Below, piece after piece: positions 12,199 to 62,083 of a stretch of 63,798 nt of DNA; the stretch's first letter is position 1, and every line of letters begins with the position of its first letter. The notes under the pieces are model-generated. The model was not told the DNA's origin. It was given only the letters and a program-made list of their open reading frames with translations, and did no database searches. Position numbers and translations under genes: made by a program. Source of the stretch: Bacteroidota bacterium (GTDB taxonomy: Bacteria > Bacteroidota > Bacteroidia > 2-12-FULL-35-15); contig JAZKBX010000100.1 of NCBI GenBank assembly GCA_040388455.1, forward strand, positions 1 to 63,798. The letters are read 5' to 3'.

Positions 12199-12248
12199 AT
12201 TTTATTATGATTAATAGATACATTTTTGTGTATCTAAACGTTCTATCC

Positions 12249-18514: not shown

Positions 18515-18515
18515 A

Positions 18516-33209: not shown

Positions 33210-34118
33210 TCAATGTTGTGCGCCTTCTATTATTCTGAAAATATGAAGTATAAATGGGAACAAAGCATCCATTGTTTCTTTTGCTCCTTTGGTTGAACCT
33301 GGCAACGCAAGAATTAGCGTTTTGCCCTTCATGCCGGCAACGCCCCTTGAAAGCATCGAAAATGGGGTTCGGTCTTGCCCATAATTTCTTGCAGCTTCCA
33401 TAATTCCGGGAATTTCTTTATCAAGCATTGGCCGTATTGCTTCAGGCGTAATGTCGCGAGGAGAAAGGCCTGTGCCGCCTGTAAGAATAATGATGTCATT
33501 TTTTAATTCATAAAGTTTTTTAATCTTATTCTGTATATCTATTGTTTCATCCGGGATAATTGAATAATCGGAGACAGAAACTTTACATATTTCTAATTTT
33601 TTAATTATTGCTTTACCGGCTTTGTCTTCTTTTTTACCTGCCGAAATACTGTCGGAACAGACGATGACCGCGGCTTTTAGATCTTTTCTGAATTTATCAG
33701 TGAAATCAGATTTTCCGCCTTTTTTCTCTTTCAGTTTGATAGCATTGATCTCAATCCCTTTATCAATGGGCTTTAGCATATCATAAATAGTCAGTGCCAC
33801 TACCGAAGCTCCATGCATTGCTTCCACTTCAACACCTGTTTTATAAATAGTATGCACTTCCATTTCTATATGAATTTCCATCTCTTCAATTTCATAACGG
33901 ACAGCAGTGAATTCAACTGGTAAAGGATGGCAATCAGGAATCATGTCGCTGGTACGTTTAACAGCAAACAAGCCAGCTGTTTTAGCCATCTCAAATACAT
34001 CGCCTTTAGGAACGGTTTTGTTTTTAATGGCATCAATAGTTTCTTGTCTGCTTACTTTAACAATTGCCTGTGCAATAGCCTCTCTTAAGGTACTTGATTT
34101 GAATGTAATATCTACCAT
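33210..34118 (-). CDS. moaC: Bifunctional MoaC (cyclic pyranopterin monophosphate synthase) - MoaB/Mog domain protein
   Basis: N-terminal MoaC (..TA..A.KRTS..IP.CHPL); C-terminal LTGGTG.S.RD.TPEA. Confidence 0.85.
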
Positions 34119-34191
34119 TATTTTAAGATTTGAAGGGTTGTTTTCATAATCTAATTTCTAAAATCTAATATTTAAGATTTAACTTCTGGTT

Positions 34192-34635
34192 TTAACTGTT
34201 TTCTTTCCAAACAAAGGTTTCATTTTCAAACATTTCTTTGCCCCATATCGGAACATGGACTTTTATTTCTTCAACAATATATCGGCATGCTTCAAATGCC
34301 TGAGTGCGGTGTTTAGAAGAGACAAAAACAAAAAGACAGATCTCCCCTGCTTTTACATTGCCTATGCTATGGTAAATGTGCATACAAGTCAGTTCAAATT
34401 TATCAAATGCGGCTTCTCGTATTTCATGGAATTTTTCTTCCGCCATTTCTTCATACGTTGTGTATTCGATAGATTTTACAATTTTATTTTCGATAACATC
34501 ACTTCTAACTTGTCCTAGAAAAATATCGTGAGCACCGATAGTTGTTTTAGTACTGTGTTTAGAAATCGAGTCAGCAATAAAATTGGGACTTATAGGGCCA
34601 TTAACAAAAACTTGATGTTTTTTATGCTCTTTCAT
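34192..34635 (-). CDS. moaE: Molybdopterin synthase catalytic subunit MoaE
   Basis: 147 aa; ..GA...F.G.VR.. and ..PIWKKE-like (PIWGKE) blocks. Confidence 0.85.
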   Translation of the reverse strand: MKEHKKHQVFVNGPISPNFIADSISKHSTKTTIGAHDIFLGQVRSDVIENKIVKSIEYTTYEEMAEEKFHEIREAAFDKFELTCMHIYHSIGNVKAGEICLFVFVSSKHRTQAFEACRYIVEEIKVHVPIWGKEMFENETFVWKENS

Positions 34636-34687
34636 TTTTTCAATTTAAATCGAATTAAGAAATGGTGATAGTGTGAAGCTTCTTGTG

Positions 34688-35815
34688 TTAAATCGATTTA
34701 GACCAGGAAATAATACCTCCTTCTAAATTTTGAAGATTTGTAAATCCAAAATCTTTTTCAAGTATTTCAATAGCTCGCTTGCTTCGTGCTCCGCTTTTAC
34801 AAAACACAATTACTTTTTTGTTTTTTGAAATTAAATGTGTTTGATTGTGAATATCACCTAAAGGGATTTTTAAATCCATAAGCTCGGATATCTGAGGCTC
34901 CTCAAAGGTTTCGCGAACATCCAAAAGTTGCACATCTAACTTGTTTTCAATGATCAATTTAAGTTCATTCACCGAAATTGACTTTGTTGATGATTCACTG
35001 TTTTTGTTTCCACAAAAATATTCGTAATCTGTTTTGAGAAACTCTTCAGTGTTTTTTGGTGCTGAATTGATCCATTCGTTGTTTCTTGCAATTTCTATGA
35101 CCTGAAAACTCATTGCAAGTGCATCAAATAATAGTAGCTTTCCTGATAAAGGTAAACCAATACCGGAAATGATTTTTATTGCTTCTGTTGCCTGAAGAGT
35201 TCCGATAATACCTGGCAAAACTCCAAGAACACCTATTTCAGAACAGTTAGGAATACTACCTGAAGGCGGTGGAGTAGGAAAAAGACAACGGTAGGTTGGG
35301 CCCGATTGTCCCGAGCTATCAATATAATTTAAAACAGAAACCTGTCCTTCGAATTTATAAATGGAACCATAGATCAGTGTTTTATTCAATATTACGCAGG
35401 CATCATTGACTAAATACCTGGTTGCGAAATTGTCAGTCCCATCAATAATAAGATCGTATTTCGAAAAAAGTTCAAGTGCGTTTTTATTATCAAGTCGAAC
35501 AGGATAAGAATTAAATTTTACGAATGGGTTCTGTTTGGAAAGTTTTGAAACAGCCGCCTCCGTTTTTAATTTCCCGATATCTTCAATAGAATAAAGGATC
35601 TGCCTTTGTAAATTAGATTCTTCCACTTTGTCAAAATCAATAATGCCAATTTCGCCAATGCCCATTGCCGTAAGATATTGTAATGCGGGACAACCTAAAC
35701 CACCGGCACCAATTACTAATATTTTAGCGCTTTTTATTTTCTCCTGACCGGTCATTCCTATTTCGGAAAGCAGCAGATGACGGGAATAACGAGCTATTTC
35801 TTCTTTGTTTAACAT
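34688..35815 (-). CDS. moeB: Molybdopterin-synthase adenylyltransferase MoeB with a C-terminal rhodanese domain
   Basis: RYSRHLLL, GAGGLGCP, CxxC-type pair; rhodanese CKSGARS. Confidence 0.85.
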   Translation of the reverse strand: MLNKEEIARYSRHLLLSEIGMTGQEKIKSAKILVIGAGGLGCPALQYLTAMGIGEIGIIDFDKVEESNLQRQILYSIEDIGKLKTEAAVSKLSKQNPFVKFNSYPVRLDNKNALELFSKYDLIIDGTDNFATRYLVNDACVILNKTLIYGSIYKFEGQVSVLNYIDSSGQSGPTYRCLFPTPPPSGSIPNCSEIGVLGVLPGIIGTLQATEAIKIISGIGLPLSGKLLLFDALAMSFQVIEIARNNEWINSAPKNTEEFLKTDYEYFCGNKNSESSTKSISVNELKLIIENKLDVQLLDVRETFEEPQISELMDLKIPLGDIHNQTHLISKNKKVIVFCKSGARSKRAIEILEKDFGFTNLQNLEGGIISWSKSI

Positions 35816-35857
35816 TTTACTTTAAGATCAATTTTAAAACTTTAACGCGTTAACAAT

Positions 35858-36091
35858 TTATCCTCCTGCAAATGGAGGCAAAAAAGCAACTTCATTTCCT
35901 TCTTCAAGAGCATAGTTGTTTTTTACCAATTTTCTATTTACTGAAATCAAAAATACGCAATCCTTTAATTGAGGGTACTCACAAATCACTTTCTCTTTTA
36001 CTGATAGAATGTCCGTGCAATCATATACAGTCAATTGTGATTTGCCAATCAAATCTGCTAAAGAACCAAAAAATATGACATGGATGCTCAT
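35858..36091 (-). CDS. moaD: Molybdopterin synthase sulfur-carrier subunit MoaD
   Basis: 77 aa ending PPFAGG. Confidence 0.85.
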   Translation of the reverse strand: MSIHVIFFGSLADLIGKSQLTVYDCTDILSVKEKVICEYPQLKDCVFLISVNRKLVKNNYALEEGNEVAFLPPFAGG

Positions 36092-36675
36092 AGGGCTAAT
36101 TCTTTTTGTTGTTTTAATTCTTCCGGTGTATTAATGTTGACAAATAATCTATCTGTAAAGAATTTTTGCTTTTTTGTAATATAAAGTTCTTTTGTAATAA
36201 AGTATTTTAAGATGTTTTGAATTTTCAAATCTTTATTCATGATTAAATTATAGATTTGATCAGATGTTCTTTTTGTGTAAACAGCGCACAAAGGCTCAAT
36301 ATTTCCTTTATATACTGGAACTGTGATGTCTGCATTATTTGTGTTTTCAATGATGTATTTTATCAGATCCCTATTAATAAAAGGAATGTCACAGCTCACA
36401 ACAATGTTGTTTTCCGTTTTACTATTCATAAGCCCTGTATATATTCCACCTAATGGTCCGCAGTCTTTTATCTTATCTTTAATTACCTTGTATCCTAAGT
36501 TGTTGTAATTATCATTGTTGGCAATGATCATAACTTCGTTTACATTGGGTAGGACAGCCTCAAGAATATGTTGTATAAATTTTTTTTCATTCAGTTTAAC
36601 CATTCCTTTATCACTGCCCATTCTTGAGCTCTTTCCACCGGCAAGTATAATACCTGTAATATTTTTTTTGATCAT
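36088..36675 (-). CDS. mobA: Molybdenum cofactor guanylyltransferase MobA
   Basis: GIILAGGKSSRMG..DKG; 195 aa; 4-nt overlaps on both sides. Confidence 0.85.
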   Translation of the reverse strand: MIKKNITGIILAGGKSSRMGSDKGMVKLNEKKFIQHILEAVLPNVNEVMIIANNDNYNNLGYKVIKDKIKDCGPLGGIYTGLMNSKTENNIVVSCDIPFINRDLIKYIIENTNNADITVPVYKGNIEPLCAVYTKRTSDQIYNLIMNKDLKIQNILKYFITKELYITKKQKFFTDRLFVNINTPEELKQQKELAL

Positions 36676-37421
36676 TTATTTTCTGCTGTTAAAAGTTTTA
36701 TACTGGCAATAGCCAATACTAAGGAAAGTATTGCTTTCAAAGCTTTGGTACTTAATATTTTCCTGCCAATATAAGCACCTGCCAATCCTCCAGCTATTGC
36801 TATCATAACCCAATTGTAGATATTGTCATCAATTACGGTGCCTTTTGAAATTAAACCAACTAATCCTGCGATGGAATTGAGAAAAATAAACAATGCTGAA
36901 ACAGCAGCTGTCTGCTTCATATTACCCCAATGAAGTAATAAAATTACGGGGCTTAAAATAATGCCTCCTCCAATTCCTATCATACCTGAAAGTAAGCCGA
37001 TGATTGCCCCGATAATAAGTGCCCACAACCAGTTGAGCTCCCTGATCGTATCGTTCTCTCTACCAATAATGCCGAGCAGGCGAAGTATGGGAAAAATAAG
37101 AAGTACACCAAGAATTTTTTTATAAGTTAATTCATCTACAGTAACGTAAGCCCCAATAAAAGATGCCGGAATGGAGGTAATAATAAAAGGTATCAAGAGT
37201 TTCCATTTAAAATGACCTCCTCTGTAAAATTGATAAAAAGCAATAAAAGAAACGAAAATATTCAATACAAGAGAGGATGATTTCATAATGGAAGGATTGA
37301 AACTAAATAGTGCCATCAAAGCCAGATAACCACTGGCACCTCCATGTCCCACTGAAGCATATAGGAAAGCTATAATAAAAAGCAAAGGTGGAAATAACCA
37401 AATCAAATCGTGGGTAGGCAT
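36672..37421 (-). CDS. TauE/SafE (DUF81) anion-transporter family membrane protein
   Basis: ~8 TM; duplicated G.GGG..-type motifs; first gene of the Moco operon. Confidence 0.75.
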   Translation of the reverse strand: MPTHDLIWLFPPLLFIIAFLYASVGHGGASGYLALMALFSFNPSIMKSSSLVLNIFVSFIAFYQFYRGGHFKWKLLIPFIITSIPASFIGAYVTVDELTYKKILGVLLIFPILRLLGIIGRENDTIRELNWLWALIIGAIIGLLSGMIGIGGGIILSPVILLLHWGNMKQTAAVSALFIFLNSIAGLVGLISKGTVIDDNIYNWVMIAIAGGLAGAYIGRKILSTKALKAILSLVLAIASIKLLTAENK

Positions 37422-37618: not shown

Positions 37619-37632
37619 ATGACAATTATCAT
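37619..37632 (-). promoter_or_regulatory. FNR/CRP-type box ATGAC-AATT-ATCAT upstream of the TauE-mobA-moaD-moeB-moaE-moaCB operon
   Basis: Centre is 36.5 nt from the G (37589) of a minus-strand cAtaTTTG. Confidence 0.6.
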
Positions 37633-37643
37633 GTTTTTTTGTT

Positions 37644-38846
37644 TTACTGTAACCCAGGTAATTTGTGAACTTCAACCAGTTGTCCGGCTTTTATGTTTTC
37701 GCTTTCTTCGGGTAAATATATCAGGCAATCAGCTGATGCGAAGGAGCTTAAAATATATGATTCCTGGCCATCAAGAGGAATAACGGTATTGTCGGAAATT
37801 TCACCTTTCAGAAAAAAAGAGAGCCCCTTTTTTTTAACATAATCGGATGCTATAGGCATTTGAGTTTGGGTCCCCCCCATTGAGTAAGGAAGAGTAGATC
37901 CCATCATCAATCTTATTGCCGGATAAACATATTCATAAAAACACGTTAAAACCGCTGCTGGATTACCGGGTAACGCAAAAATAAAAGTGTTTTTATACTT
38001 TCCAAAATATAAGGGTTTCCCTGGTTTTTGTTTTACTTTATAGAAAATAGTTTGTACTTCTAATTTATTTAATGCTCTTTCTACAAAATCATAATCACCA
38101 ACAGAAATACCCCCTGATAATAATAAAATATCACAGGAATCAATCGAATTTGCAATAATAGTATTTGTTTCGACCTCATTATCTGGTACTGATTGAGCAC
38201 CTTCTGTTGGAATTCCAATACTTTTTAAAGCGGCAATGATACTGTATGAATTGGATTCATAAATTTGTCCTCCTGACAATATATTTCCGGGCTTTTGCAA
38301 TTCGCTCCCCGTAACAATTATCTTAACCTTGGGTTTTCGAATTACATTTACATTGGTAATTCCCATGCCGGCAATAAAACCAATAGCAGCCGCTGTAAGG
38401 CTTGTGCCTTTCGGTAGCGCCAATTCATTTTTTTCTATTTGCGATCCTTTTGAACGAATGTTTGCGTATTGTTTTATTGCTACATCAAGAATTTGTAATT
38501 GATCGTTTTCAAGTGTTATTTTTTCCTGCATAACTATACAGTCAGCACCATCAGGAACCAGTGCTCCGGTAAAAATCCGGATTGCCTGTCCGGATATTAA
38601 AGTTCCTTTAAAAGAATCTCCGGCAGCTACTTCAGCAATTACATTTATTTGTAAATTATTTTTAAAATTCTCAAAAATAAATGCATAACCGTCCATTGCC
38701 GACTGGTTAAACGGAGGAAGAGCAAGAGGAGAATATATATCTTCGGCTAATACATAACCATAAGCATTATCAATCGAAATATTTTCAACTGATAATAAAT
38801 GTATGTTTTCGATAACCGCTTGTTTGGCTTTTTCTACAGATAACAT
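37644..38846 (-). CDS. moeA: Molybdopterin molybdotransferase MoeA
   Basis: 400 aa; ..S.MDGYA.., ..I.TG...P.GAD.VV..E; LLSGG.SVGD.D. Confidence 0.85.
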   Translation of the reverse strand: MLSVEKAKQAVIENIHLLSVENISIDNAYGYVLAEDIYSPLALPPFNQSAMDGYAFIFENFKNNLQINVIAEVAAGDSFKGTLISGQAIRIFTGALVPDGADCIVMQEKITLENDQLQILDVAIKQYANIRSKGSQIEKNELALPKGTSLTAAAIGFIAGMGITNVNVIRKPKVKIIVTGSELQKPGNILSGGQIYESNSYSIIAALKSIGIPTEGAQSVPDNEVETNTIIANSIDSCDILLLSGGISVGDYDFVERALNKLEVQTIFYKVKQKPGKPLYFGKYKNTFIFALPGNPAAVLTCFYEYVYPAIRLMMGSTLPYSMGGTQTQMPIASDYVKKKGLSFFLKGEISDNTVIPLDGQESYILSSFASADCLIYLPEESENIKAGQLVEVHKLPGLQ

Positions 38847-38869
38847 GATACTGTGAAATTAATAAAAAT

Positions 38870-39853
38870 TTATCCACCAATGCTTATCATACTTCTTTCA
38901 TGTGTTACAGTGGTCTGATTCCCCCAGTTTTTAGTTTCATTATTCCCGCCTAGCATAAACGATTTACCTTGAACACATTCCTTAATAAGGGGTTCAATAT
39001 CATTACCAAGGCGCAAAGAAGTGAGAAGATCGGTTCCTGCTTTTGCAAAAAGGCAATTATACATTTTACCATCGGAAGTTAGGCGCATACGGTTGCAACC
39101 ATTGCAAAAAGGCTCGGACATTGTACTTATTATTGCAAAAGAGCCTTTGTGATTTGGAACAAAATATTTTTTTGAGGTATCATTCTTTTCATTCAATAAT
39201 TTAATATAATGATACTTTGAAGAAATAATATTTAAGATCTGCTTATGAGAAAACACTTTCTCACTGCTCCATTTGTTTCCTGTAAAAGGCATAAATTCTA
39301 TGAAACGAATGTGTACCGGAACATCTTTTGTCCATTGAATGAACTCCGGAATTTCAGAGTCATTTACATCTTTCATCACAACTACATTCACTTTTACATG
39401 AAAATCATTTGCTACTAACAATTTAATATTATCGGTTACGCGATCAAATTTATCTCTTTGAGTGATTGAAAAATACTTTTCTTTGATAAGAGAATCCAAA
39501 CTTACGTTCACAGATTTTAATCCTGCTTCTTTAAAGGTTTCAATAAATTCATTTACAAAAACTCCATTGGTGGTAATGGCAAGCTCAATAGGATATTTTG
39601 AAAGCCTTAGAATGATTTCTTTTGCATCTTTTCTTACTAAAGGTTCTCCGCCAGTAAGACGAATTTTTTTTACTCCGTTTTTAACAAAAACGGAAACAAT
39701 TTGATCAATTTCATTCGCAGTCATTCGTGATGAATTCGCGAAAAACCCTTTTGCTAAATCGTTGGGATTGCAATAGGAGCATCGCAAATTGCATTTATCG
39801 GTGAGCGATATGCGCAGGTAATCATGAATACGGTTGAATTTATCTTTAAGCAT
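38870..39853 (-). CDS. moaA: GTP 3',8-cyclase MoaA (radical SAM)
   Basis: YLRISLTDKCNLRCSYC; C-terminal C..C...R.T..G; ends in GG. Start at MLKDKF (39853) preferred over 39877. Confidence 0.9.
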   Translation of the reverse strand: MLKDKFNRIHDYLRISLTDKCNLRCSYCNPNDLAKGFFANSSRMTANEIDQIVSVFVKNGVKKIRLTGGEPLVRKDAKEIILRLSKYPIELAITTNGVFVNEFIETFKEAGLKSVNVSLDSLIKEKYFSITQRDKFDRVTDNIKLLVANDFHVKVNVVVMKDVNDSEIPEFIQWTKDVPVHIRFIEFMPFTGNKWSSEKVFSHKQILNIISSKYHYIKLLNEKNDTSKKYFVPNHKGSFAIISTMSEPFCNGCNRMRLTSDGKMYNCLFAKAGTDLLTSLRLGNDIEPLIKECVQGKSFMLGGNNETKNWGNQTTVTHERSMISIGG

Positions 39854-39880
39854 GATTAATCTTTTTTTGTAGATCATTTT

Positions 39881-40057
39881 TTAATCAACATTTTCACCTT
39901 TTGAACTGTTTTTAAATTCATTAATTCCTTTTCCTAATCCTTTCATTAACTCTGGAATTTTTTTGCCTCCAAAAAGTAATAGAATTATAATTCCAATGAT
40001 TATTAATTCAGTACCACCTAAACCAAATATCCCTATTATCATTATTAATGTATTCAT
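39881..40057 (-). CDS. tatA: Twin-arginine translocase subunit TatA/E (58 aa, below the ORF-track cut-off)
   Basis: Reverse translation gives [58 protein letters not shown], with the classical LLFG.KK.P....G....FK pattern. Confidence 0.8.
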
Positions 40058-40059
40058 CT

Positions 40060-40629
40060 TTAGTTTTGTTTTTTTGTAATGGTAACTAATAAATTGGATA
40101 ATTCATTGTAAAACTCAATGGGTTCGGCAGTTTGTAATTTCGCCTGGAATTTTTCTCCAAGTTCGGTTAGATGTGAATACATGAATTTCTGGTAGGCATC
40201 TTCAACAATAAATGATTGTTCTTCATCTTTTGCTAAAGCCTTTTTTACCGAGAGCAATGAAGCGAATTCTAATTGATATATAATTGAATCAGGACTGTCA
40301 CCACTTTTTGCATTCATGCCGAACGCTTTGTAAAATGCCGCAGCATCTGCTACGCAGTTCATTTTTTCACAAACAGCGGTTTCTGTTGTTGGAATTGTAC
40401 CTTTCAAAAACACCCTGGAATATTCTCTTAAAATTTCTTTATAATCCATGTTTTTTTGTATGGATCTCAAATATCCATGAATTTCTAGATCCAGATCACC
40501 ATCTTTTAATAGGTCATCAATGATAGAATCTATGTCATCACATTTTTCCTGATCCGGATATGAAAAGCCCATACTCAGTATCCTGAACAAATCGGCTTTT
40601 ATTAAATTTTTGTCTATTGCAGTTTTCAT
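40060..40629 (-). CDS. TorD/NarJ/DmsD-family redox-enzyme maturation chaperone
   Basis: 189 aa all-helical; position between gamma and tatA; ..Y...F pattern. Confidence 0.7.
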
Positions 40630-40635
40630 GTTTTT

Positions 40636-41523
40636 TTATTTTTGTGTAGTGAGATCGATCCATTGTGAATAATGTTTTTTTCCACTTATATTTTCAAAAT
40701 GTCCGTTCCAGATTGCGAACGCAATTTTTGTTGGTATAGTCAGGGGAGCATCATCCTTATCAGGTGAAACCATAGGGCGGGTAAAAATCACTTTCCAGGT
40801 ATTGTTTTCCCATACACCCCATGCAGTGGCATTCTGATTGGTTTGAGTTGTGAGGGTTCCAAAACTCTCTGCCATACATTCTTCAGAAGGTTCTTTTCTA
40901 TCAAAGATGGACATTGGATTTCCTGCATAGGCTGCGGGCATGAAATTTTTGCCGGCCCCTTTAGAATAATCAAGTGCTGAAATATCTTTTGCAAACTTCC
41001 CTTTGGTTCCATCCCCTTCTTTTTCTGCCATTGGATAAATATCTGCCCAGTAATTCGGATATGCATCCTTCACGTCACGGAAGCCGTTTTCAACATCATG
41101 CTGCCAAATTGCTTTCCAATGAATGATATGCACTCGTCCATTTTTGTTACCCATCATAAAAATCGGAAGGGTGTCAGGGTGCATCGGTAATTGAATTGCC
41201 ACTTGGTCGCAGAACTTATCTGCCTCAACAATCATATCTTTTGTTGAATCAGTCCACTCCAATAAAAAAGCTATAGTGGTTCCATCATTAATGGATTTTA
41301 CTTTTATGTTTTTTACTGATGGAATAGTTAACATCGGAGTAGTGATGTTTTGTGGAAGCACAGGAATAGTAGTCGCTTGGATATCCTTCCATACTGCATT
41401 ATTTACTTCACGAAAAGGAATGTTCGCTGCTTTCCCCGATTTTATTATGATTGCAGTTGGTTGGGCAGTTGCAATACTCTCTGACAGTGCTGTTATTGCC
41501 GCTAGAAAAATTAGTTTTTTCAT
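40636..41523 (-). CDS. Periplasmic haem-b gamma subunit, ethylbenzene-dehydrogenase (EbdC/NxrC/SerC)-like
   Basis: Sec signal peptide, no further TM, ~270-aa beta-rich domain, downstream of beta. Confidence 0.65.
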   Translation of the reverse strand: MKKLIFLAAITALSESIATAQPTAIIIKSGKAANIPFREVNNAVWKDIQATTIPVLPQNITTPMLTIPSVKNIKVKSINDGTTIAFLLEWTDSTKDMIVEADKFCDQVAIQLPMHPDTLPIFMMGNKNGRVHIIHWKAIWQHDVENGFRDVKDAYPNYWADIYPMAEKEGDGTKGKFAKDISALDYSKGAGKNFMPAAYAGNPMSIFDRKEPSEECMAESFGTLTTQTNQNATAWGVWENNTWKVIFTRPMVSPDKDDAPLTIPTKIAFAIWNGHFENISGKKHYSQWIDLTTQK

Positions 41524-41570
41524 GTTTCGTTTTTTTATAATTATTAATCCTTTTGAAATTAATTTTTATT

Positions 41571-42701
41571 TTAAGGAGTATTGTGTCTGAAAGTTCCATG
41601 GTCTTTATCATCGTATGGTCTTACATAAACGGGTTCTGTCATTGGAACTTTTGTTACCACTTCTCCTTTTTCATTGTACCCTACCGTAAAATCTCCTTCT
41701 CTTTTGTAATGATGAATTGTTTTTGGCGAGTTACCGAATAAAAGAAAAGCAGCAAGTAGATCTTTATCATTTTTGAGGTTTTTATACATTTCAACCGCTT
41801 CGTCAACTCCCGGACCAAACATTTGATGTAAAAAATCTTTAGGTACATGGATTGGTGGGATGTAATATACATTGGGCTCTGTTCCGTACTGCGGATACAA
41901 TGGCAAAGCAATTTTTTTGATGTGTACAATTTGGTCAATCGGGTTGTCTGCTTTTGCTTCCCCAGGTTTGCTCAGGAATCCCTGCATCCTGATTTTCCCT
42001 ATACATGTTTGAACACAACGAGGTTGTTCGCCTTGCTCTATCAATGGATAGCAACCGATACATTTTTCAGATACACGTGTTACCATATTGAAAAATGTTT
42101 TTTTATACGGACAAGCTTTTATACATTCTTTGTATCCCCTGCAACGGGATTCATCAATTAAAACAATTCCATCTTCGGGTCTTTTATAAATTGCTTTTCT
42201 TGGACATGCCGCTAAACATGCAGGATAAGTGCAATGATTGCAGATACGTGCTAAATAAAACATCCAGGTATCATGTATTCCGTTAAAAAAAGCTCCTTTG
42301 TTTACAATGGAAGAACACTCATCTTCGCCCATGTTTGGAAATGCGTAATCTCTTTCAGCAGGTCTCCATCCATTTACATTTTCTCCTTTGGTGTCGTCAA
42401 AAATAGTTTTGCCTTTGTATTCTCCACTCGCTTTATCCCACGATTGCTCCCCCATCATTTTAAGTGTATTCACATCCCACTTTAATGGATATCCACCGTA
42501 TGGTTTTGTTTCCACATTGTTGAAGAACATTGTTTCTTCGCCCTTACCGGAGGTCCAGGTTGTTTTACATGCAACAGTACATGTTTGACATGCGATACAT
42601 TTATTGGTATCAAAAACAAATGCTATTTGTTTGTTGGGTCTGTTGTCATCATAAGGATATTTCATATCCCTTTTTAGCTGCCAGTTTTTTACTTGTGCCA
42701 T
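41571..42701 (-). CDS. Fe-S (3x[4Fe-4S]+[3Fe-4S]) electron-transfer beta subunit, NarH/NxrB-like
   Basis: FDTNKCIACQTCTVAC; ICNHCTYPACLAACP..AIYKRPEDGIVLIDESRCRGYKECIKACPYKK..SEKCIGCYP, near-collinear with NarH as I recall it. Confidence 0.9.
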   Translation of the reverse strand: MAQVKNWQLKRDMKYPYDDNRPNKQIAFVFDTNKCIACQTCTVACKTTWTSGKGEETMFFNNVETKPYGGYPLKWDVNTLKMMGEQSWDKASGEYKGKTIFDDTKGENVNGWRPAERDYAFPNMGEDECSSIVNKGAFFNGIHDTWMFYLARICNHCTYPACLAACPRKAIYKRPEDGIVLIDESRCRGYKECIKACPYKKTFFNMVTRVSEKCIGCYPLIEQGEQPRCVQTCIGKIRMQGFLSKPGEAKADNPIDQIVHIKKIALPLYPQYGTEPNVYYIPPIHVPKDFLHQMFGPGVDEAVEMYKNLKNDKDLLAAFLLFGNSPKTIHHYKREGDFTVGYNEKGEVVTKVPMTEPVYVRPYDDKDHGTFRHNTP

Positions 42702-42759
42702 GATAATTTCTGTTTTTAGTTAAACTATTACTAAATAATTCGGTGCTTAATATTTAAGA

Positions 42760-45700
42760 TTATGTATTATAATAACCGCCCTTCATATACTTTTTCAATT
42801 CCTCACTTTCATAAGTCGGGCGAATTCCTTTTTCTGCACCTTCCCATAATCCTTTTCCATCAAGCCCGCCTTTTTCTGCAAATGTTACTTTTACAAATGA
42901 TTCTCTTGGCGCTCCCGTTGCGCCATGAACGTCCAGTTCAAATCCTTTACCTACCATTTGTCCGAAGTGGTTTTTCCTTACTAATGAATCAGTAAGAAGT
43001 GTTGGATTTAACCAGGCCCTGGTACAACTTTGATGTGATCCTCTCCGGAACAATGATTGATAACCGGTTTTTTCATTTTTTGCTAAACCTGTTGCATCTT
43101 TTTTTGAAGCCGCAACCGAACCGTAAGTGGCACCGTAAGCATTGTGCCACATTCTGAGAACACCCATGGGAGTTCCGGGGTAGTATCTTGCACGGCACAA
43201 TAAGCGGGAAAGTTCATAAGCATCCGTGTTTTTTTTCTGTTGCCACCCTCGGAATGGACGATCCTCGGGATCAGCATCTACATATACATAATCACCATCT
43301 TCCACTCCAAGTGCTTTGGCATCATTAGGGTTGATATCCACATACATTTCGGTCACGAATGGGGTACGTTTATCAGCTCTGTGCATGTCGCCAAATGGAC
43401 CAAACCAAACCGCTACGATATCTGTATCTACGGGCGTTGTATGTGCACCGTGTCGATATTTTGGTGTGTGGAAAATAAATTTATATTCTTTATCTGCTGT
43501 GGTTAATGGATGTTTCGTTAACTTTTCCTCACTCCAGGGTTTTACAACGTTTCTTCCCTGACGCACATCACCGGACATATTGTCTCTTGAAACACCATAG
43601 CTTTCGGGTGAAGCCGGTTTGATGGCCGGATGCGGATTTGAAACAATCACATTTGGTTCATAGAAAGTTGAATCAATCGGTTCTCTGTGTACAGGCATAT
43701 TTTCACCTGCGGCTAAAAATTCTGCTTCATCCCGGTAGAATTCTAATCGTCCTGTTTTTGTATACCATTGTTTCTCTTCGGCAACTTGCTCATAACCGCT
43801 ATGTTTAGGATACGTCCTTGACATCAATAAAGAGGGAATACCTTGTTTCGCTTTTGCTTCTATTTCCAATACATTATAACCTTTGGTTGCAGGACTCAGA
43901 TCAAATACTCTCTGTAAATAGACTTCAGGTTTTCCTTCATTCATAAATTTGAAATAATCGCTGAAACGTTTATCTCCTGTCAGTTTTGCCATTGCATTAG
44001 CAATACCTGCAATGGCTTCGAGATCCCCTTTGGTATCATAGATTCTTGCTAAAGGAGTTCTTGGATAAACATATAAGAATGGATTTGTTACCGACATGGT
44101 AGCATCCGGTGATTTGAATTCGCCCCAGGAATCCACACCAAAAACAATATCAGCATACTCACAAGAACCTGTCCACCACCAATCAAATACGCCTATAAAT
44201 TCTACTTTTGGGTAAGAGTTTACAACTGCTTCATAGTGTCCTTTATTATTTGCCAACAATGAATTACCATTGGAAACCATAACGGATTTGGTAGGTGTAG
44301 GCATGTGTGTATCTCCTGTTAATACTTTGTTACCTACTTTTAACATACGATCACTGTTGTTGAAAAAATGTGCGGATTCGTATGAGAAATATTTTTTGAC
44401 ATCAGCCGGTTTTCCTTCTTCCATTTGAATATTAAATGGATTCTCTAAAATATACGAAGGAAGGCCGCTGAAGTATGCAGCACGGTAATTGCCCGAAAAA
44501 CTTCCAACGTTGCCCCCAACTCTTCCAATATTTTTTGTCAAGGAGGCAAGTAATAGAACTGTTCTGTCTTTCAATACATTGTTAAAAAACTGGTTCGGGC
44601 CCATTCCCATTGCGAATAATGTTTTACCAGAATTTTTTGCGATGTCTCTTGCAATGGTTTTAATACCTTCTACCGGTGCCCAGGTTATTTCAGAAACAAT
44701 TTCAGGTGTAAAGTTTTCATTCACGTACTGTTTAATTAAATCGAAAACAGTTCTCACTTCCACTTCCTTCCCATCTAATAATGTTACTTTATACTTACCT
44801 TCAAGTGATGGGAAAATGCCTTGTGCATTCATTTTTTTTCCATAATCATCTCTACAGATTGGTTTAGCAGCATTTAGTTTTTCATCCCAGATCATAAAAT
44901 CTCCCCAGTCCTTTCTATCTTTATCGGAAACAAAGGCACCCGCTTGTTTTAGCATAGGAGTTGCTTTTTCTCCATCTTTCATTACATGGATATAATCAAC
45001 GATATCTTTATTCTGGTAATCTTTTATTACCTCAGTGGGTTTTAAGAATTGATTATTATCCATTCTTACCAGGAAAGGCATATCTGTGAATTTCTTCACA
45101 TACTCAACATCAAATAAGTTTTCATTGATAATAACATTAGTAAAGCCCAATGCTAAAGCAGGTGTAACTCCTGGTCGAACGATCAATACATTATCTGCTT
45201 TGTTTGCTGTGGCACTGTATTCACAAGCAATTACAGTAACTTTTGCACCTTTCATTCTTGCTTCTGTGAGCCAATGTGCATCCGGCATTTTTGTGGTGAT
45301 CCAGTTCATCCCCCAAACCACAATATGGTCGCTATGTTCAACACAAACCAAATCATAATCCATCGCTTGCTGGCCCGTTACCATTGCATGGCCCGGAGGT
45401 AAATCTGTATGCCACGCAAAACTATCCCAGGCTCTGGCACCTTTAGCCTCCTCGGGACTGCATTTATTTATTTTTGAATCAAGCAATGCAAGTGAATTTG
45501 CAAAACGATTCATGCCAAAAATCCTGGTAACACCTAATGCCGCCATCCCACCTCTGAACTTCAATACCTGAACTCCTTTTCCATGTGTAGCTTCAATCAT
45601 TTCAGGAGCATAGCCTTGTTCTTCCAGGTATCTTTTCCCTTTTTTTCCGTTATAAGTGGTAGCGATATTTTGCAATACCTTAGCAGTTAATTCAGAAGCT

Positions 45701-46239
45701 TCCTCCCAAGTGATTTTCACGAAAGGTTCTTTTCCTCTTCCTTCAAAATATTTTGCAGGTGCTTTACCATTACTTTCTCTTGGGAATCCATCTTTTACCC
45801 ATAACAAAAATCCTTCGCGTGCAACAGGCGATTTAACCCTTCTGTCGCCATAAAATCTTCTGTGCAGTGCCAATCCTTTTTGGCAGCAACGTGGCTCCCA
45901 CCTTGCCGATGCTTTGTTGCCCTGCAAATCTTCTGCGTGTGAAAATCCAAAACTTGGTGCAATACGCACTATGGTGTCATTTTTTACATGTGCCTTCAAT
46001 AAACAATTATGCGTGTCGTTGGGAGCGCAGAGGAAAGTAAATTCACTTTCATGCTTCCATAAATCCCGGTATGTTTTTTCCCAATCACGATTAGGGTATG
46101 CTGCAAGTGGGTTTTTAACATCAACGGGATCAAAAAATGCAAAAGTTTTGCTGAACCCTTGAGCTTCTAATTGAGATACAACAATTGCACCCATCGCTGC
46201 AAGGGAAACATTTCGGAGGAATTTTCTTCTACTGTCCAT
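42760..46239 (-). CDS. Tat-exported bis-MGD molybdoenzyme catalytic subunit, NarG/NxrA-like (type II DMSO reductase family)
   Basis: SRRKFLR twin-Arg signal; [14 protein letters not shown] (NarG RDWEDGYRQRWQHD); FS0 segment C71-x3-D75-x3-C79..C119; TKMPDAHW (NarG TRTPDAHF, Mo-ligand Asp); 1159 aa. Confidence 0.9.
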
Positions 46240-46351
46240 ATTTTTAAGATTTATTTTGTATTTGCAAAAAACAGTTATTTCCTAAATTGTTTTTTAATTT
46301 TTTTTACTGAAAAATTGCATCTGTTATTAATTTATTTTACCGCTCACAATA

Positions 46352-46765
46352 TCATGGCTTTGCTGTTTTTGGCTTAGTCTGCGACTGCGGCTGTGGTTTT
46401 TTTGCTGTTACTACTTGTTGTGGGCCACTTTGTGATTTGATATAACCTACGATCGCTTTAATATCAGTATCTTTTAAATCCAGAAAATCCGGCATTACAA
46501 TAGAGTTGTATTCAAGAAATAATGCTTTAGCTTTTGCATCCCCTGAATTAATAACAGATTGAGAGGATTTGATCCACTTCACCAAATAGGTGGCATTGTA
46601 TTTTGAATGTACTCCTTTTAAATCAGGGCCGACCAAACGCCCGTTACCAATAGAATGACATGCCGCGCATTTGGAAGCAAAAATTGCTGGACCATCCTGC
46701 GCTTTTGCAGAAAAAAATAAGGCGAATAAAACAACAGTGATCGGAAGAATTAGTTTCTTTTTCAT
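46352..46765 (-). CDS. Monohaem c-type cytochrome with a Pro/Gln/Lys-rich C-terminal tail
   Basis: Signal/anchor, CAACH, distal MPDF; first gene of the molybdoenzyme operon. Confidence 0.85.
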   Translation of the reverse strand: MKKKLILPITVVLFALFFSAKAQDGPAIFASKCAACHSIGNGRLVGPDLKGVHSKYNATYLVKWIKSSQSVINSGDAKAKALFLEYNSIVMPDFLDLKDTDIKAIVGYIKSQSGPQQVVTAKKPQPQSQTKPKTAKP

Positions 46766-46877
46766 GATATAAGTTTTTTAGTTGTGAGTATTAAATTTCT
46801 TGACAAACATAGAAGGAAAAAAAAATGCAAAAAATGATAAACGATGGTTTGAAATCTGATATTGGATGGTTGCGAAT

Positions 46878-46891
46878 ATGATGTATATCAT
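46878..46891 (-). promoter_or_regulatory. FNR/CRP-type box ATGAT-GTAT-ATCAT upstream of the cyt c/molybdoenzyme operon
   Basis: Perfect half-sites, 113 nt upstream of the start at 46765; 56.5 nt from the G of a minus-strand TTTG (46828). Confidence 0.6.
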
Positions 46892-46978
46892 AAAATGGCG
46901 TTTTGTATGGTCTTTTTGGTTTGATTATCAGGTGATTAAAATAGAGGTTCGTTGTGGATATGTTGGAAATAAAAACAA

Positions 46979-48292
46979 TTATTGCTTGAGGAAGTTGGGC
47001 TTAAATGTGACCATAATAAATGCCCAATTACTTATCTGATCTGTACGTCCATCTTTTTTCCAATCCAAAACTCCTTTTAGTATCCCCAATGTTTCGGTAG
47101 GTAAAAATTGTGAATAGCCGGCCGTAATCAATACTCCACCAGATAGAATATAACTTGCAGTAACATCTATTTCAGTACCTAACGAATTGCTCATGGCGGT
47201 GTATTTTCCTGTTTTGATCAATTCTTTTGGATCAAGAACATCAGCGGCCGACATGAATTCATGGACATCGAAGGAAGCATTCCATTTTTCTGTTTTATAT
47301 TTCACCTTTAAATAGAGGTCTTGTAAACCAACATTATCAATATGGTTTCCTACATAAAAATAATCCATAGTGCCATTGAACGCATGGTTGGTACCAAAAA
47401 TGGGATTGAATGAATGGTTAATTTCTTTATAAGTTTTTGAGGTATCTGTACCGCTTTGTCCCGAAATGTATTCATAACCTAATCCAATTGAAATTTTTTC
47501 TTTAATAGAGTAAACGGCATCAACACTACCAAGAATTGCGGCTGTCTGTTTTTTGTTTTTGTCAACACCGGTTTGATAATAGAAATTGAGTCCAACAAAA
47601 AAAGGTTTGGCTTTGTATTCCGTATGTGATCCAATAGTTGTAATATAGCGTGTGCTGTTTATGGCTGCCGGAGACTGCTGGCCAACATTCAATGCTAATA
47701 AGCTCACTTTTATTTTATTTATATTTTTGTTCAGCCACAGGTATTGCATTTCTTTATAACTATTTGCGATAGCATAAGATGTTCCCACATAAGATTCTGA
47801 ATTCTGATTATAGGCAGCACCGGCATGACAAGTAAAAGTGCTGTCGGTATATTTTAGTAAAAAGGCATCGTGGCTTCTGCCTTGCTGCGCCCAGGCAACC
47901 CCACCTAAAATGCGTTCATCATCATACACAATTTCCTGACGACCCATTTTAATTGATACTTTTTTTGAAAAAAAATATTCGGCCCAACCTTGATTTAATC
48001 CCGATGTACTATTATCATAACTATTTAGTTGACTTTGACTTCCCCAGATCCTTATATCTTGTAATACAATTCCAACTTTGAAATTATCTGATTTATATCC
48101 AAAATTTAATCGCGTTCGCTGCGTAACGAACATAGCTGCTTTTTGAAGTGTATCAGCCGGAGATTTAAATCCATGGCGATATTCAAATCGTGGGCGTATT
48201 TCTCCCGTTAATGTCATTTGTGCATTTGCGATTGCGGCTGTTACAGCTATGATTGTTGTGGTCAGAGCTCCTATTAGTGTTTTTGTTTTCAT
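46979..48292 (-). CDS. Outer-membrane beta-barrel porin, alginate-export (AlgE)-like family
   Basis: Signal peptide; GEIRPRFEYR.. start; alternating beta-strand pattern; C-terminal aromatic-rich strand. Confidence 0.75.
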   Translation of the reverse strand: MKTKTLIGALTTTIIAVTAAIANAQMTLTGEIRPRFEYRHGFKSPADTLQKAAMFVTQRTRLNFGYKSDNFKVGIVLQDIRIWGSQSQLNSYDNSTSGLNQGWAEYFFSKKVSIKMGRQEIVYDDERILGGVAWAQQGRSHDAFLLKYTDSTFTCHAGAAYNQNSESYVGTSYAIANSYKEMQYLWLNKNINKIKVSLLALNVGQQSPAAINSTRYITTIGSHTEYKAKPFFVGLNFYYQTGVDKNKKQTAAILGSVDAVYSIKEKISIGLGYEYISGQSGTDTSKTYKEINHSFNPIFGTNHAFNGTMDYFYVGNHIDNVGLQDLYLKVKYKTEKWNASFDVHEFMSAADVLDPKELIKTGKYTAMSNSLGTEIDVTASYILSGGVLITAGYSQFLPTETLGILKGVLDWKKDGRTDQISNWAFIMVTFKPNFLKQ

Positions 48293-48396: not shown

Positions 48397-48410
48397 ATGA
48401 TATGTGTCAT
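48397..48410 (-). promoter_or_regulatory. FNR/CRP-type box ATGAT-ATGT-GTCAT upstream of the porin gene
   Basis: 105 nt upstream of the start at 48292; no clear TTTG at the canonical spacing. Confidence 0.5.
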
Positions 48411-48477: not shown

Positions 48478-48491
48478 ATGAGATATATCAT
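48478..48491 (+). promoter_or_regulatory. FNR/CRP-type box ATGAG-ATAT-ATCAT (FNR paralogue 2 promoter)
   Basis: Centre is 36.5 nt from the G of TtacTTTG (48521). Confidence 0.6.
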
Positions 48492-48544
48492 CTTTTGTAG
48501 AAGAGATTCTTTTTTACTTTGCAGTATATTTTAAAGATTTGGAA

Positions 48545-49264
48545 ATGACAAAAAAGACAAATAAAATTAATGTTCCACATTGTTCACGATGCGATTCATT
48601 TAATTCTTCTATGTTTTGCTCTCTAAATATTGTTGAAGAATCAAATCTTTCTGATAATAAAGTTCATAATCTTTATAAAAAAGGGCAAATTGTTTTTTAT
48701 GAAGGACAGCAATCGAGAAATCTATTCTGTGTTTTTTCCGGAAAAGTAAAAATATTCAAATTAGGTGATGATGGAAAAGAACAAATAGTTCGTTTTGCAA
48801 AAAAAGGTGATGTTATTGGGTACAGAGCTCTTCTGGGAGGAGAGAAATATTTCGCATCGGCATCTGTAATGGAAGATGCTATGATCTGTAGTTTCCCCAA
48901 ATTTACAATTGACGAGTTGCTTAATTGTAACTCGAAATTTGCAATTCAAACGATCAAATTACTCTCCAAGGATTTAAGAATTGCAGAACAAATAATATTG
49001 AATATGGCTCAAAAGCCTGTAAGGGAGCGTATTGCTGAAGCATTGATAATGCTGAAACAATATTACGGCATTGATGAACTAACAGAAACCATTAATACAA
49101 CTCTAACACGCGAAGAAATTGCAAACATTGCAGGGACATCTACAGAAACGTGTATTCGTATTTTATCAGAATTCAATAGTGATCATATTATTAAGATCAT
49201 TGGTAAGAGTATAAAAATAACTAATATTCATAAGCTATTGCAAATAGCGAATGTGAGTGATTAG
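48545..49264 (+). CDS. CRP/FNR-family regulator with an FNR-type N-terminal Cys cluster (paralogue of 12249-12971)
   Basis: HCSRCDSFNSSMFC (C-x2-C-x8-C); HTH EIANIAGTSTETCIRIL; ends IANVSD like its paralogue (IANLSD). Confidence 0.85.
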   Translation: MTKKTNKINVPHCSRCDSFNSSMFCSLNIVEESNLSDNKVHNLYKKGQIVFYEGQQSRNLFCVFSGKVKIFKLGDDGKEQIVRFAKKGDVIGYRALLGGEKYFASASVMEDAMICSFPKFTIDELLNCNSKFAIQTIKLLSKDLRIAEQIILNMAQKPVRERIAEALIMLKQYYGIDELTETINTTLTREEIANIAGTSTETCIRILSEFNSDHIIKIIGKSIKITNIHKLLQIANVSD

Positions 49265-49432: not shown

Positions 49433-49487
49433 ATTTTAAAAATTTTCCTGCTAATATCTTTGTTGTGTTAATATTAATAATTTGAAA

Positions 49488-50225
49488 ATGAATATTGCCA
49501 AGAATATTATTGCTTTTTCAGAGAATTCTGTAAGTTGTGAAAATTGCTGGCTCAACAATTTTTCAGCTAATGTAAATTGCTCAACCGAATTCCTGGATAA
49601 AATCCTTTTGAACAAAGAGGAGAAAAATTATAACAAAGGGGCATACTTAATTAAGAGTGGCGTTCTTGTGTCAGGCGTTTATTGTATTCAAAAAGGTACT
49701 GTTAAAGTTTTTAAAAAGGGGATTAAAAATAAGGATTTTATACTATGGGTTGCGCGTAAAGGCGATGTTATTGGCTTGAATTCTTTTATTAATGATGAAG
49801 TATATTCTTTTTCTGCATCTGCATTAGACGAAACTTCTGCCTGTTTTATTCCATCTTCTGACTTGAAAATTCTTCTTAGCAAAAAGCCTGTTGCTTTTGT
49901 TAAATTAATGGGAAATGTTTGTGATAAATTGAATTTTGTGGAACAACGTATTACCAGTATCTCAAAAAAAACTATAAAAGAACAATTTGCAGAAATACTA
50001 ATTACTCTATCCCGGAGCAATTCCGAAAGTGATAAAAATTTAGTTATTAATTATTCAGTTAAGGACCTGGCAAGCTTTGTTGGGACTACTAAAAATTATC
50101 TTTATAAAATCCTGGTGGAGTTTACTGATCGGAAAATCCTCTCCGTTAATAACCGAAAGTTTGCGATAAGTAATATGAATGCTCTTTCATTGATTGCCGC
50201 AGGGGAAAATAAATTACCTAAATAA
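49488..50225 (+). CDS. CRP/FNR-family regulator, Cys cluster C-x2-C-x10-C, divergent recognition helix
   Basis: SCENCWLNNFSANVNC; cNMP fold; HTH FVGTTKNYLYKILVEF lacks the E--IR of the other three. Confidence 0.8.
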   Translation: MNIAKNIIAFSENSVSCENCWLNNFSANVNCSTEFLDKILLNKEEKNYNKGAYLIKSGVLVSGVYCIQKGTVKVFKKGIKNKDFILWVARKGDVIGLNSFINDEVYSFSASALDETSACFIPSSDLKILLSKKPVAFVKLMGNVCDKLNFVEQRITSISKKTIKEQFAEILITLSRSNSESDKNLVINYSVKDLASFVGTTKNYLYKILVEFTDRKILSVNNRKFAISNMNALSLIAAGENKLPK

Positions 50226-61913: not shown

Positions 61914-62083
61914 TATTTTTTTAAGTACATCTGAACACTTTAAATAATTTTTTCAGAAATGTAAATGGAATACCTCTTTAAAAAAAATATGAAAATGCGA
62001 AGTTTGTATCAAGGCTTTCATATTACTAAAATAGGTGATTCAGCGTAATAAGCATATATTTGAAAAAATATTTTTTAAACAAT

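Follow-up and report, generated by a model that had tools for sequence, protein, structure and literature searches.

Which reaction is performed by a predicted periplasmic molybdoenzyme of the nitrite oxidoreductase (NXR) and nitrate reductase (NAR) lineage in a member of the Bacteroidia, and in which direction does it run? The question is raised by contig JAZKBX010000100.1 of a Bacteroidota metagenome-assembled genome (MAG), of which a stretch of 63,798 nt, here called the window, was analyzed as a whole; all coordinates are positions in it. A string of nine minus-strand genes encodes a catalytic alpha, an iron-sulfur beta and a haem-b gamma subunit, together with a porin, a cytochrome c, an assembly chaperone, TatA and two enzymes of molybdenum cofactor (Moco) synthesis. 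We consider it probable (roughly 0.7) that the three subunits form a soluble complex acting as an anaerobic, cytochrome c-dependent periplasmic nitrate reductase.

Closest solved relative and cofactor ligands

The best solved structure was the same for alpha, beta, and gamma, namely the NXR-ABC complex of Kuenenia stuttgartiensis (PDB 7B04). Alpha matched NXR-A (7b04_B) over its full length (E 3.5e-248, 829 bits), beta matched NXR-B (7b04_A, E 1e-115), and gamma matched NXR-C (7b04_C, E 9e-21). The match to 7B04 is enough to settle the fold. The other solved enzymes scored 183 bits (PcrA), 123 bits (EbdA), and ~105-110 bits (E. coli NarG) against alpha. The nine genes were intact, and Pfam and NCBIfam scans reproduced their families, in agreement with the porin-to-moeA string reported in a preliminary description of this DNA:

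46979-48292, minus strand: alginate-export (AlgE-like) outer-membrane porin with a signal peptide (Pfam Alginate_exp, E 1.8e-13)
46352-46765, minus strand: monohaem class I cytochrome c, predicted to be Sec-exported (Pfam Cytochrom_C; one CxxCH)
42760-46239, minus strand: catalytic alpha subunit for molybdenum-bis(pyranopterin guanine dinucleotide) (Mo-bisPGD), 1159 aa, N-terminus MDSRRKFLR (twin-arginine translocation, Tat); best solved match 7b04_B
41571-42701, minus strand: iron-sulfur beta subunit, 376 aa (Pfam Fer4_11, TIGR03478); best solved match 7b04_A
40636-41523, minus strand: soluble haem-b gamma subunit of the EB_dh fold, predicted to be Sec-exported (Pfam EB_dh, E 4e-29; 7b04_C)
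40060-40629, minus strand: TorD/NarJ-like assembly chaperone (Pfam Nitrate_red_del; TIGR03482, E 1.4e-14)
39881-40057, minus strand: TatA inside the operon (Pfam TatA_B_E, E 2.3e-16)
38870-39877, minus strand: MoaA, GTP 3',8-cyclase (TIGR02666, 341 bits, above its cut-off)
37644-38846, minus strand: MoeA, molybdopterin molybdotransferase (Pfam MoeA_N, MoCF_biosynth, MoeA_C)

Signal peptides were judged by eye and by hydropathy. Gamma has a cleavable-looking N-terminal signal; beta, with 16 Cys in four groups, has no signal peptide and is proposed to be co-exported with alpha. Besides signal peptides, hydropathy showed no hydrophobic helix in alpha, beta, or gamma. No NarI was found among the window genes, nor was NarK found in the window, where the sole major facilitator superfamily transporter (62060-63334) resembles MxcK or an efflux protein. 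The preliminary description had likewise reported a 1159-aa alpha with the twin-Arg signal SRRKFLR, a Sec-exported EbdC-like gamma without a membrane helix, and an exported enzyme with neither NarI nor a nitrate/nitrite antiporter nearby, and all of these statements hold. A sequence search of solved structures gave no relative of the porin.

The ligand assignments were taken from published work on the structure of Kuenenia NXR, an enzyme that runs in both directions. The ligands of the iron-sulfur cluster FS0 in alpha (C71, D75, C79, and C119) align with Kuenenia C67, D71, C75, and C115, giving the unusual NXR-type set of three Cys and one Asp, and the substrate-positioning Asn of NAR and NXR is kept as Asn74. 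The Mo ligand is D279 in WHTD279LPPGH, which aligns with D275 of Kuenenia NXR-A and D222 of E. coli NarG, in a column that is Asp in 87 of the 88 aligned alpha sequences; D320 in TKMPDAHW, to which the preliminary description had given this role, aligns with E. coli D264 instead. By alignment with Kuenenia Met155 and Lys305, the haem-b axial ligands of gamma are Met124 and Lys283. Beta lacks the 8-residue insertion that Kuenenia NXR-B has, as also reported for Nitrotoga NxrB (PMC6050957). With a Mo-Asp, FS0, a four-cluster beta, an EB_dh gamma, and a TorD-like chaperone, the locus shows the defining traits of the type II dimethyl sulfoxide reductase family.

No curated equivalog model reached its cut-off for alpha. 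A divergent classical NarGHI that faces the cytoplasm, with anchor and transporter genes elsewhere, might be read from the NarG-like length of alpha and from relatives named 'nitrate reductase alpha subunit' (JGI/KEGG-style). This explanation is practically refuted by the Tat signal of alpha, by a Sec-exported EB_dh gamma instead of NarI, by an FS0 with Cys71 at the position of E. coli NarG His50 and Asp75 where NarG has Cys, by 24% identity to E. coli NarG, by 132 bits with the narG model TIGR01580 against a cut-off of 1084, and by a position elsewhere in the tree described below. Alpha does align to NarG, as had been noticed by eye, but the similarity is remote.

Phylogenetic placement of the alpha subunit

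A scan of one genome per GTDB species confirmed at least 592 relatives; locus counts below refer to the best 80 of these unless stated, and L-numbers are labels of related loci. We aligned 88 alpha subunits, drawn from samples of the 120 best matches to the window protein and of the 120 best matches to Kuenenia NXR-A, together with distant 50%-identity representatives, the NarG proteins of E. coli and Haloferax mediterranei, a Natronococcus plasmid homologue, and a Nitrotoga-type NxrA. Identities were taken over the trimmed alignment, and the tree was built by neighbour-joining with 100 bootstraps. For the Nitrospira/anammox branch, the set contained Kuenenia, a pair of proteins that share 85% identity with its NXR-A, a Nitrospinota MAG, and others. 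The Nitrotoga-type reference comprised ~1090 residues stitched from three frames of locus L082 and was checked against fragments annotated as Nitrotoga; P0497, which is so annotated, is situated at a contig end. A profile of Nitrotoga and Hydrogenobaculum N-terminal fragments found short fragments only and no full-length named Nitrotoga or Hydrogenobacter protein, and the search of 50%-identity representatives merged the relevant diversity into few representatives with generic cluster names. The supplementary alignment of Chicano et al., read from a text copy with duplicated and corrupted rows, served only as a lead (N-terminal motifs like those of Nitrotoga and Hydrogenobaculum) and not as a reference.

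Identity to the window alpha was 66-93% for Bacteroidota MAG proteins and 58-62% for MAG proteins of Myxococcota, Planctomycetota, Nitrospirota, 'Deltaproteobacteria', and Leptospiraceae. It was 50.5% for the Nitrotoga-type sequence (53-55% at the N-terminus), a lower bound because the reference was stitched from a frameshifted locus, about 46-47% for the Natronococcus plasmid homologue, and 40-42% for the whole clade of Kuenenia, anammox, and Nitrospinota type. Representatives outside the NXR/NAR superclade were 26-34% identical, and Haloferax NarG 26%.

In the tree, the NXR/NAR superclade had 100% bootstrap support and two branches, one of which was the Kuenenia type. The sister branch, supported at 100% once one SAR202 representative was omitted, comprised the Nitrotoga-like NxrA, the Natronococcus homologue, and a Gaiellaceae representative, together with a MAG clade of 34 taxa (96%) in which the window alpha lay within a Bacteroidota subclade (99-100%); support was likewise 100% for a clade of 38 taxa with the Nitrotoga-like NxrA in it. 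Subfamily profiles of the sister branch gave 2006 and 1609 bits on alpha, against 1076 bits for the Kuenenia-type branch. On this sequence evidence, alpha is a member of the periplasmic NXR/NAR superclade and of its Nitrotoga-type branch. This branch corresponds to the 'sister clade' described by Kitzinger et al. 2018 (PMC6050957); by their account, Nitrotoga supplies its one proven nitrite oxidoreductase and Hydrogenobacter thermophilus its one proven periplasmic nitrate reductase, beside many uncharacterized proteins.

Three narrower assignments were ruled out. The strict Nitrospira/Nitrospina/anammox NXR branch fails on the 40-42% identity, the tree, and the profile scores (1076 vs 2006 bits). 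Haloarchaeal periplasmic Nar fails on the 26% identity, a tree position outside the superclade, and the lack of Rieske and cytochrome b genes beside the operon. The Clr/Ser/Ddh/Ebd/Pcr group fails on the TIGR03479 and EbdA models, both below cut-off, on the low scores of the solved PcrA and EbdA, and on the tree. The preliminary description had linked alpha to the lineage of Nitrospira/anammox Nxr and archaeal pNar; the superclade stands, but neither the Nitrospira/anammox branch nor the Haloferax-type pNar does. Alpha belongs neither to the Clr/Pcr/Ser/Ddh/Ebd group, a position that the preliminary description had named as refuting its view, nor to classical NarGHI.

Candidatus Nitrotoga NXR shares with the window enzyme the tree branch (100%), ~50% identity, a Tat-exported alpha, a gamma that is exported by Sec and has no membrane helix, a chaperone of the TorD type, and a beta without the 8-residue insertion (PMC6050957). 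Nitrotoga, however, is a chemolithoautotrophic nitrite oxidizer, whereas the window host is a Bacteroidia MAG with the cassette in a denitrification island; unlike that of Nitrotoga, the cassette includes FNR-type regulators as well as a porin, a cytochrome c, tatA, and Moco genes of its own, and its alpha belongs to the separate multi-phylum MAG subclade (96%), whose members are 58-93% identical to it. Kuenenia NXR-ABC is a soluble heterotrimer with the same FS0 set, substrate Asn, Mo Asp, and Met/Lys haem-b ligands, but it falls in the other superclade branch, its NXR-B carries the insertion, and no NXR-T or tubule context was seen at the window locus. In the Haloferax mediterranei NarGH system, Nar is likewise exported, and its gene cluster encodes an EB_dh-related protein as well as a TorD-like chaperone; its FS0 has His/Cys ligands as in E. 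coli, however, and Rieske and cytochrome b genes lie in the cluster.

Two of the references are of interest in themselves. In L082 (JADKHS010000003.1, a Nitrosomonadales MAG), the Nitrotoga-type nxrA is split by ~17 frameshifts and annotated as several small open reading frames (ORFs), which looks like an assembly error that hides the gene from protein-based surveys. L083 lies on plasmid 2 of a cultured haloalkaliphilic archaeon, Natronococcus occultus SP4 (NC_019976.1, 114.8-118.4 kb). Its sister-branch alpha homologue has no gene-table entry, needs two frames in tblastn, and may be frameshifted; NarH-like and TorD-like genes, a 1088-aa haem-copper oxidase (HCO), and ric are its neighbours.

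Cytochrome c as the proposed electron partner

Gamma measures 427-462 aa at six Bacteroidota-type loci, where it carries a monohaem cytochrome c domain as an N-terminal extension and where a separate cytochrome c gene is lacking. The fused domains are 40-50% identical to the window cytochrome c (E 1e-25 to 1e-32). The fusion linker is rich in Pro, Thr, Ala, and Lys, and a similar low-complexity tail (Pro/Lys/Gln-rich) follows CAACH (residue 33) and Met91 in the window protein. As the two proteins are fused in six related loci, we regard the cytochrome c as the redox partner of the enzyme, and there is good genomic evidence that it would dock on gamma. From such docking would follow an electron chain of haem c, haem b, four Fe-S clusters, FS0, and Mo.

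The second-best solved match of the window cytochrome c was PDB 6btm_A (E 1.5e-14), deposited as Alternative Complex III subunit A, a homology that would fit a supply of electrons via alternative complex III. Elsewhere in the family, a protein of 550-920 aa with a cytochrome c domain replaces the small monohaem cytochrome c upstream of alpha and may be a different electron partner (L043, L048, L069, L077, and L078; one Planctomycetaceae, one 'Deltaproteobacteria', and Acidobacteriota-type loci). In L089 (Planctomycetota, JBFWYD010000035.1) and L063, both of which depart from the alpha-beta-gamma order, the gamma homologues measure 624 and 680 aa. The L089 protein has two EB_dh domains, and gamma and the chaperone precede alpha there. 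The accessory subunits evidently vary considerably across this enzyme family.

A soluble enzyme fed by cytochrome c might also reduce another oxyanion, such as chlorate, perchlorate, or selenate. Clr, Ser, and Pcr have Tat-exported alpha-beta, a Sec-exported EB_dh gamma, a soluble cytochrome c donor, and no quinol-oxidizing subunit, a design that the window enzyme appears to have in common with them, and the best NCBIfam model for alpha was the generic type II alpha TIGR03479. That model, however, gave 292 bits against a cut-off of 985, and the EbdA model gave 146 against 2000; the solved PcrA and EbdA fell far behind the 829 bits of NXR-A, with 26-34% identity outside the superclade. Moreover, the NAR/NXR substrate Asn is conserved, the neighbouring genes concern N-oxides, and no chlorite dismutase was recognized among the window ORFs scanned. 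Clr, Ser, and Pcr belong to another clade and presumably act on other substrates, and reduction of such an oxyanion at this locus seems very improbable.

Denitrification genes and FNR-type regulators

The genes around the cassette point to nitrate. Some 10 kb past the Moco operon, the window encodes a clade II (Sec-type) NosZ with NosD. A cytochrome c and an HCO adjoin the upstream FNR regulators, and the best solved match of the HCO is NorB of cNOR, the nitric oxide reductase that depends on cytochrome c. NO-stress genes of the RIC/ScdA type lie in the same island. The regulators and the FNR-like boxes nearest to the cassette are as follows:

32424-33146, minus strand: Crp/Fnr regulator downstream of the Moco operon (Pfam cNMP_binding and HTH_Crp_2)
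48539-49264, plus strand: FNR-type regulator 1, divergent from the porin (Pfam; Cys C15, C18, C27, C117)
49482-50225, plus strand: FNR-type regulator 2 (Pfam; Cys C19, C22, C33, C121)
46879-46890: FNR-like core box without mismatch, TGATGTATATCA, 113 bp upstream of the start codon of the cytochrome c gene
48398-48409 and 48479-48490: two one-mismatch core boxes in the spacer that separates the porin gene from the first FNR gene
37620-37631: one-mismatch core box, intergenic, ahead of the TauE/Moco operon

In their Cys spacing, both divergent regulators resemble the oxygen-sensing cluster of FNR. Matches to the canonical FNR 14-mer showed no enrichment in the window (8 found, 9.4 expected), after which we adopted the 12-mer core TGAT-N4-ATCA; this core occurs 12 times against 2.3 expected, a count reached in 0 of 100 shuffles. 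The nos and nor-like genes and the FNR boxes had already been named as context in the preliminary description, which is borne out for the genes and for the 12-mer core and not for enrichment of the canonical 14-mer. A sigma-70 promoter scan gave 83 hits against 63.4 in shuffles (sd 8.8), and no operon promoter stood out, while a terminator scan stayed below the shuffle mean; both scans are of doubtful use for Bacteroidota.

Four Crp/Fnr genes are present in the window (12207-12971, 32424-33146, 48539-49264, and 49482-50225), and the proteins at 12207 and 48539 have the N-terminal motif PxCxxCDSxNxSxFC in common. Perfect core boxes also stand just upstream of a U32 peptidase gene (10114) and of the 12207 regulator (12186), as well as upstream of a ribonucleotide reductase gene (53683) and of the gene at 58173 (58072). 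The four genes, the shared motif, and the boxes before several genes suggest a single anaerobic regulon.

Other genes of the window touch on the same subject. A cluster at 16572-19790, with a perfect core box upstream (16363-16374), encodes a DUF2249-ScdA-hemerythrin protein (RIC-type), a DUF1858-DUF2249 protein, and a membrane protein of 424 aa whose only match, to COX1, is weak; it may represent NO-stress genes or a divergent haem-copper oxidase. The denitrification island also encodes, at 56598-58046, a predicted lipoprotein of 482 aa in which a CSMSGCH (CX4CH-like) motif near the N-terminus precedes a YVTN-type beta-propeller; its matches to hydrazine synthase beta and lactonase-type NosZ are weak. 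It was considered as a nitrite reductase candidate and rejected, its matches being of the generic YVTN type only. A protein with a CHU_C domain of the type IX secretion system is also encoded in the window and, together with the best genome matches, assigns the contig to Bacteroidia.

Beyond the nine-gene string and a gap of 222 bp, a second operon (33210-37421, minus strand) begins, whose gene content matches the series TauE, mobA, moaD, moeB, moaE, and moaC-B given in the preliminary description (all by Pfam):

36672-37421, minus strand: TauE/TSUP permease
36088-36675, minus strand: MobA
35858-36091, minus strand: MoaD
34688-35815, minus strand: MoeB-rhodanese
34192-34635, minus strand: MoaE
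33210-34118, minus strand: MoaC-MoaB fusion

This set of genes goes with alpha at other loci as well. A TauE/SafE (TSUP) permease gene amid Moco genes recurs in several phyla (L002, L005, L008, L011, L015-L020, L025, and L088), and the permease might carry an anion or a sulfur compound.

Nitrate reduction or nitrite oxidation

Nitrate reduction is favoured because nosZ and nosD, the NOR-like HCO, and the RIC/ScdA genes share the island, and because four-Cys FNR-type regulators flank the cassette, the core box is enriched, and boxes stand ahead of the operons. The reductive direction is also favoured by the recurrence of Crp/Fnr and porin genes beside the enzyme in other phyla. Support for nitrate/nitrite as the substrate comes from the clade, from conservation of the Asn, and from the N-oxide context. 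The reading builds on the gene content, homology, ligand conservation, lack of a membrane anchor, cytochrome c-gamma link, clade, and box enrichment given above, and from these we infer both substrate and direction. Nitrate respiration fed from cytochrome c, as the preliminary description had proposed, remains the best reading of the context; its caution that the direction cannot be read from the sequence is also well founded, Kuenenia NXR running both ways. A further argument for reduction is that a characterized periplasmic NAR, that of Hydrogenobacter thermophilus, is reported from the same branch (PMC6050957, citing Kameya et al. 2017). By that account it is a periplasm-facing nitrate reductase of the Nitrotoga-type clade, but, as reported there, it is membrane-bound, unlike the window enzyme, for which no anchor is encoded at the locus.

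Alternatively, the enzyme could be a physiological nitrite oxidoreductase that turns periplasmic nitrite into nitrate for detoxification or extra energy in a heterotroph, with electrons passing via gamma and cytochrome c to a terminal oxidase or to an N2O or NO reductase. Nitrotoga NXR is its nearest proven relative in the tree, the other branch holds Kuenenia NXR, a proven nitrite oxidizer that works in both directions, a soluble gamma with cytochrome c is the design proposed for Nitrotoga and Nitrospina (PMC6050957 and another paper), and several papers leave this option open for such MAGs. Nevertheless, the cassette lies within a denitrification island under four-Cys FNR-type regulators, Crp/Fnr genes accompany it in other phyla too, the window reads as that of a heterotrophic Bacteroidia with no carbon-fixation genes in it, and under anoxia there would be no obvious high-potential acceptor except NosZ or NOR. 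We therefore regard a physiological nitrite oxidoreductase as unlikely.

We give a smaller chance still to a reversible use in heterotrophic Bacteroidota and other phyla, with nitrate respiration under anoxia and nitrite oxidation when nitrite accumulates, a high-affinity oxidase or N2O reductase then accepting the electrons. If this were true, it would amount to an unrecognized non-autotrophic source of nitrate and a hidden nitrite/nitrate loop, and metagenomic counts of 'nxr' and 'narG' would be systematically misassigned.

Several points weigh against the nitrate reductase that we favour. To our knowledge, no member of the 34-taxon MAG clade has been characterized, and outside Nitrotoga, none of the members found had been tested. 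The nearest proven enzyme placed in the tree is a nitrite oxidizer, Nitrotoga NXR, and NXRs are reversible. The tree itself is a neighbour-joining tree with two references stitched from frameshifted DNA and without a Hydrogenobacter or Nitrospira sequence. Neither nirK nor nirS was recognized when looked for in the window, which also has no quinol:cytochrome c oxidoreductase. Finally, the FNR boxes are motif matches only.

Proposed mechanism of nitrate reduction

For the nitrate reductase, we infer the regulation, the porin role, and the upstream electron route as follows. The FNR-type regulators would turn the cassette on under anoxia. The TorD-like chaperone would hold apo-alpha during insertion of Mo-bisPGD, a cofactor for whose synthesis the cassette has moa, moe, and mob genes, and FS0 with its three Cys and one Asp would be assembled in alpha. 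Folded alpha and beta could then be exported by Tat with the aid of the operon TatA, while gamma and cytochrome c would leave by Sec and acquire haem once in the periplasm. The AlgE-like porin is the proposed entry of nitrate (or nitrate/nitrite) to the periplasm.

A quinol:cytochrome c oxidoreductase with genes elsewhere would carry electrons from menaquinol to the monohaem cytochrome c. Their further path would lead over the gamma haem b (Met124/Lys283) and the four beta Fe-S clusters to FS0 and finally to Mo (D279). There, nitrate held by Asn74 would be reduced to nitrite and handed to the rest of the denitrification pathway, including the products of the nearby NOR-like and NosZ genes. Proton-motive force would arise only upstream and not at the enzyme itself.

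Distribution of the cassette

The best 80 relatives are nearly all MAGs; 13 are labelled Bacteroidota, Bacteroidia, Chitinophagales, or Flavobacteriales, and the others belong to Acidobacteriota, Planctomycetota, Myxococcota, and further phyla. The order alpha-beta-gamma is preserved in nearly all of these loci. The Bacteroidota loci have a wider cassette in common, with porin, cytochrome c, chaperone, tatA, and Moco genes. MAG contig JAURXZ010000019.1 carries a near-identical alpha with adjoining genes 91-98% identical, and a 61%-identical lineage has nearly the whole set (cytochrome c, alpha-beta-gamma, chaperone, porin, TauE, Moco genes, and Crp/Fnr). In nine related loci, tatA has an equivalent position. 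At 13 of the 80 loci, Acidobacteriota loci included, a porin profile detected homologues no more than 10 kb from alpha, and Alginate_exp genes near alpha were also found in L086, L088, and L089 (Planctomycetota) and in L091; Crp/Fnr genes adjoin the cassette in L086, L088, and L091. One locus labelled Candidatus Competibacteraceae (L008, JACSSC010000036.1) has a Bacteroidota-type cassette with a 69%-identical alpha, a cytochrome c-gamma fusion, and a porin, a mismatch that could reflect misbinning or recent transfer.

Genes resembling nxr have already been published in MAGs of organisms not known as nitrite oxidizers (Armatimonadota, Proteobacteria, Chloroflexota, Planctomycetota, Verrucomicrobiota, Acidobacteriota, Actinomycetota, and Desulfobacterota), with the direction left open throughout. 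Our literature search, whose full-text part was not exhaustive, found no report singling out Bacteroidota. With more than 590 GTDB species, 13 Bacteroidota in the best 80, and these published genes, the novelty that the preliminary description had claimed for the lineage in Bacteroidota was overstated: the lineage is already known from non-nitrifier MAGs and is widespread in metagenomes. The complete cassette, the recurring porin and FNR genes, and the cytochrome c-gamma fusion seem worth adding to this knowledge.

Significance

Annotation pipelines label this enzyme 'molybdopterin oxidoreductase', 'narG', or 'nxrA' almost at random. The direction of Nitrotoga-related enzymes in non-nitrifiers has been raised in several recent papers, and the window locus offers a complete, context-rich candidate for expression, with the cytochrome c-gamma fusion of its relatives and the accompanying porin and FNR-type regulators as experimental handles. 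Bacteroidota with clade II nosZ are usually counted as N2O reducers without a respiratory nitrate reductase. If the cassette works as a nitrate reductase, many uncultured Bacteroidota, Acidobacteriota, Planctomycetota, and Myxococcota would be able to begin denitrification.

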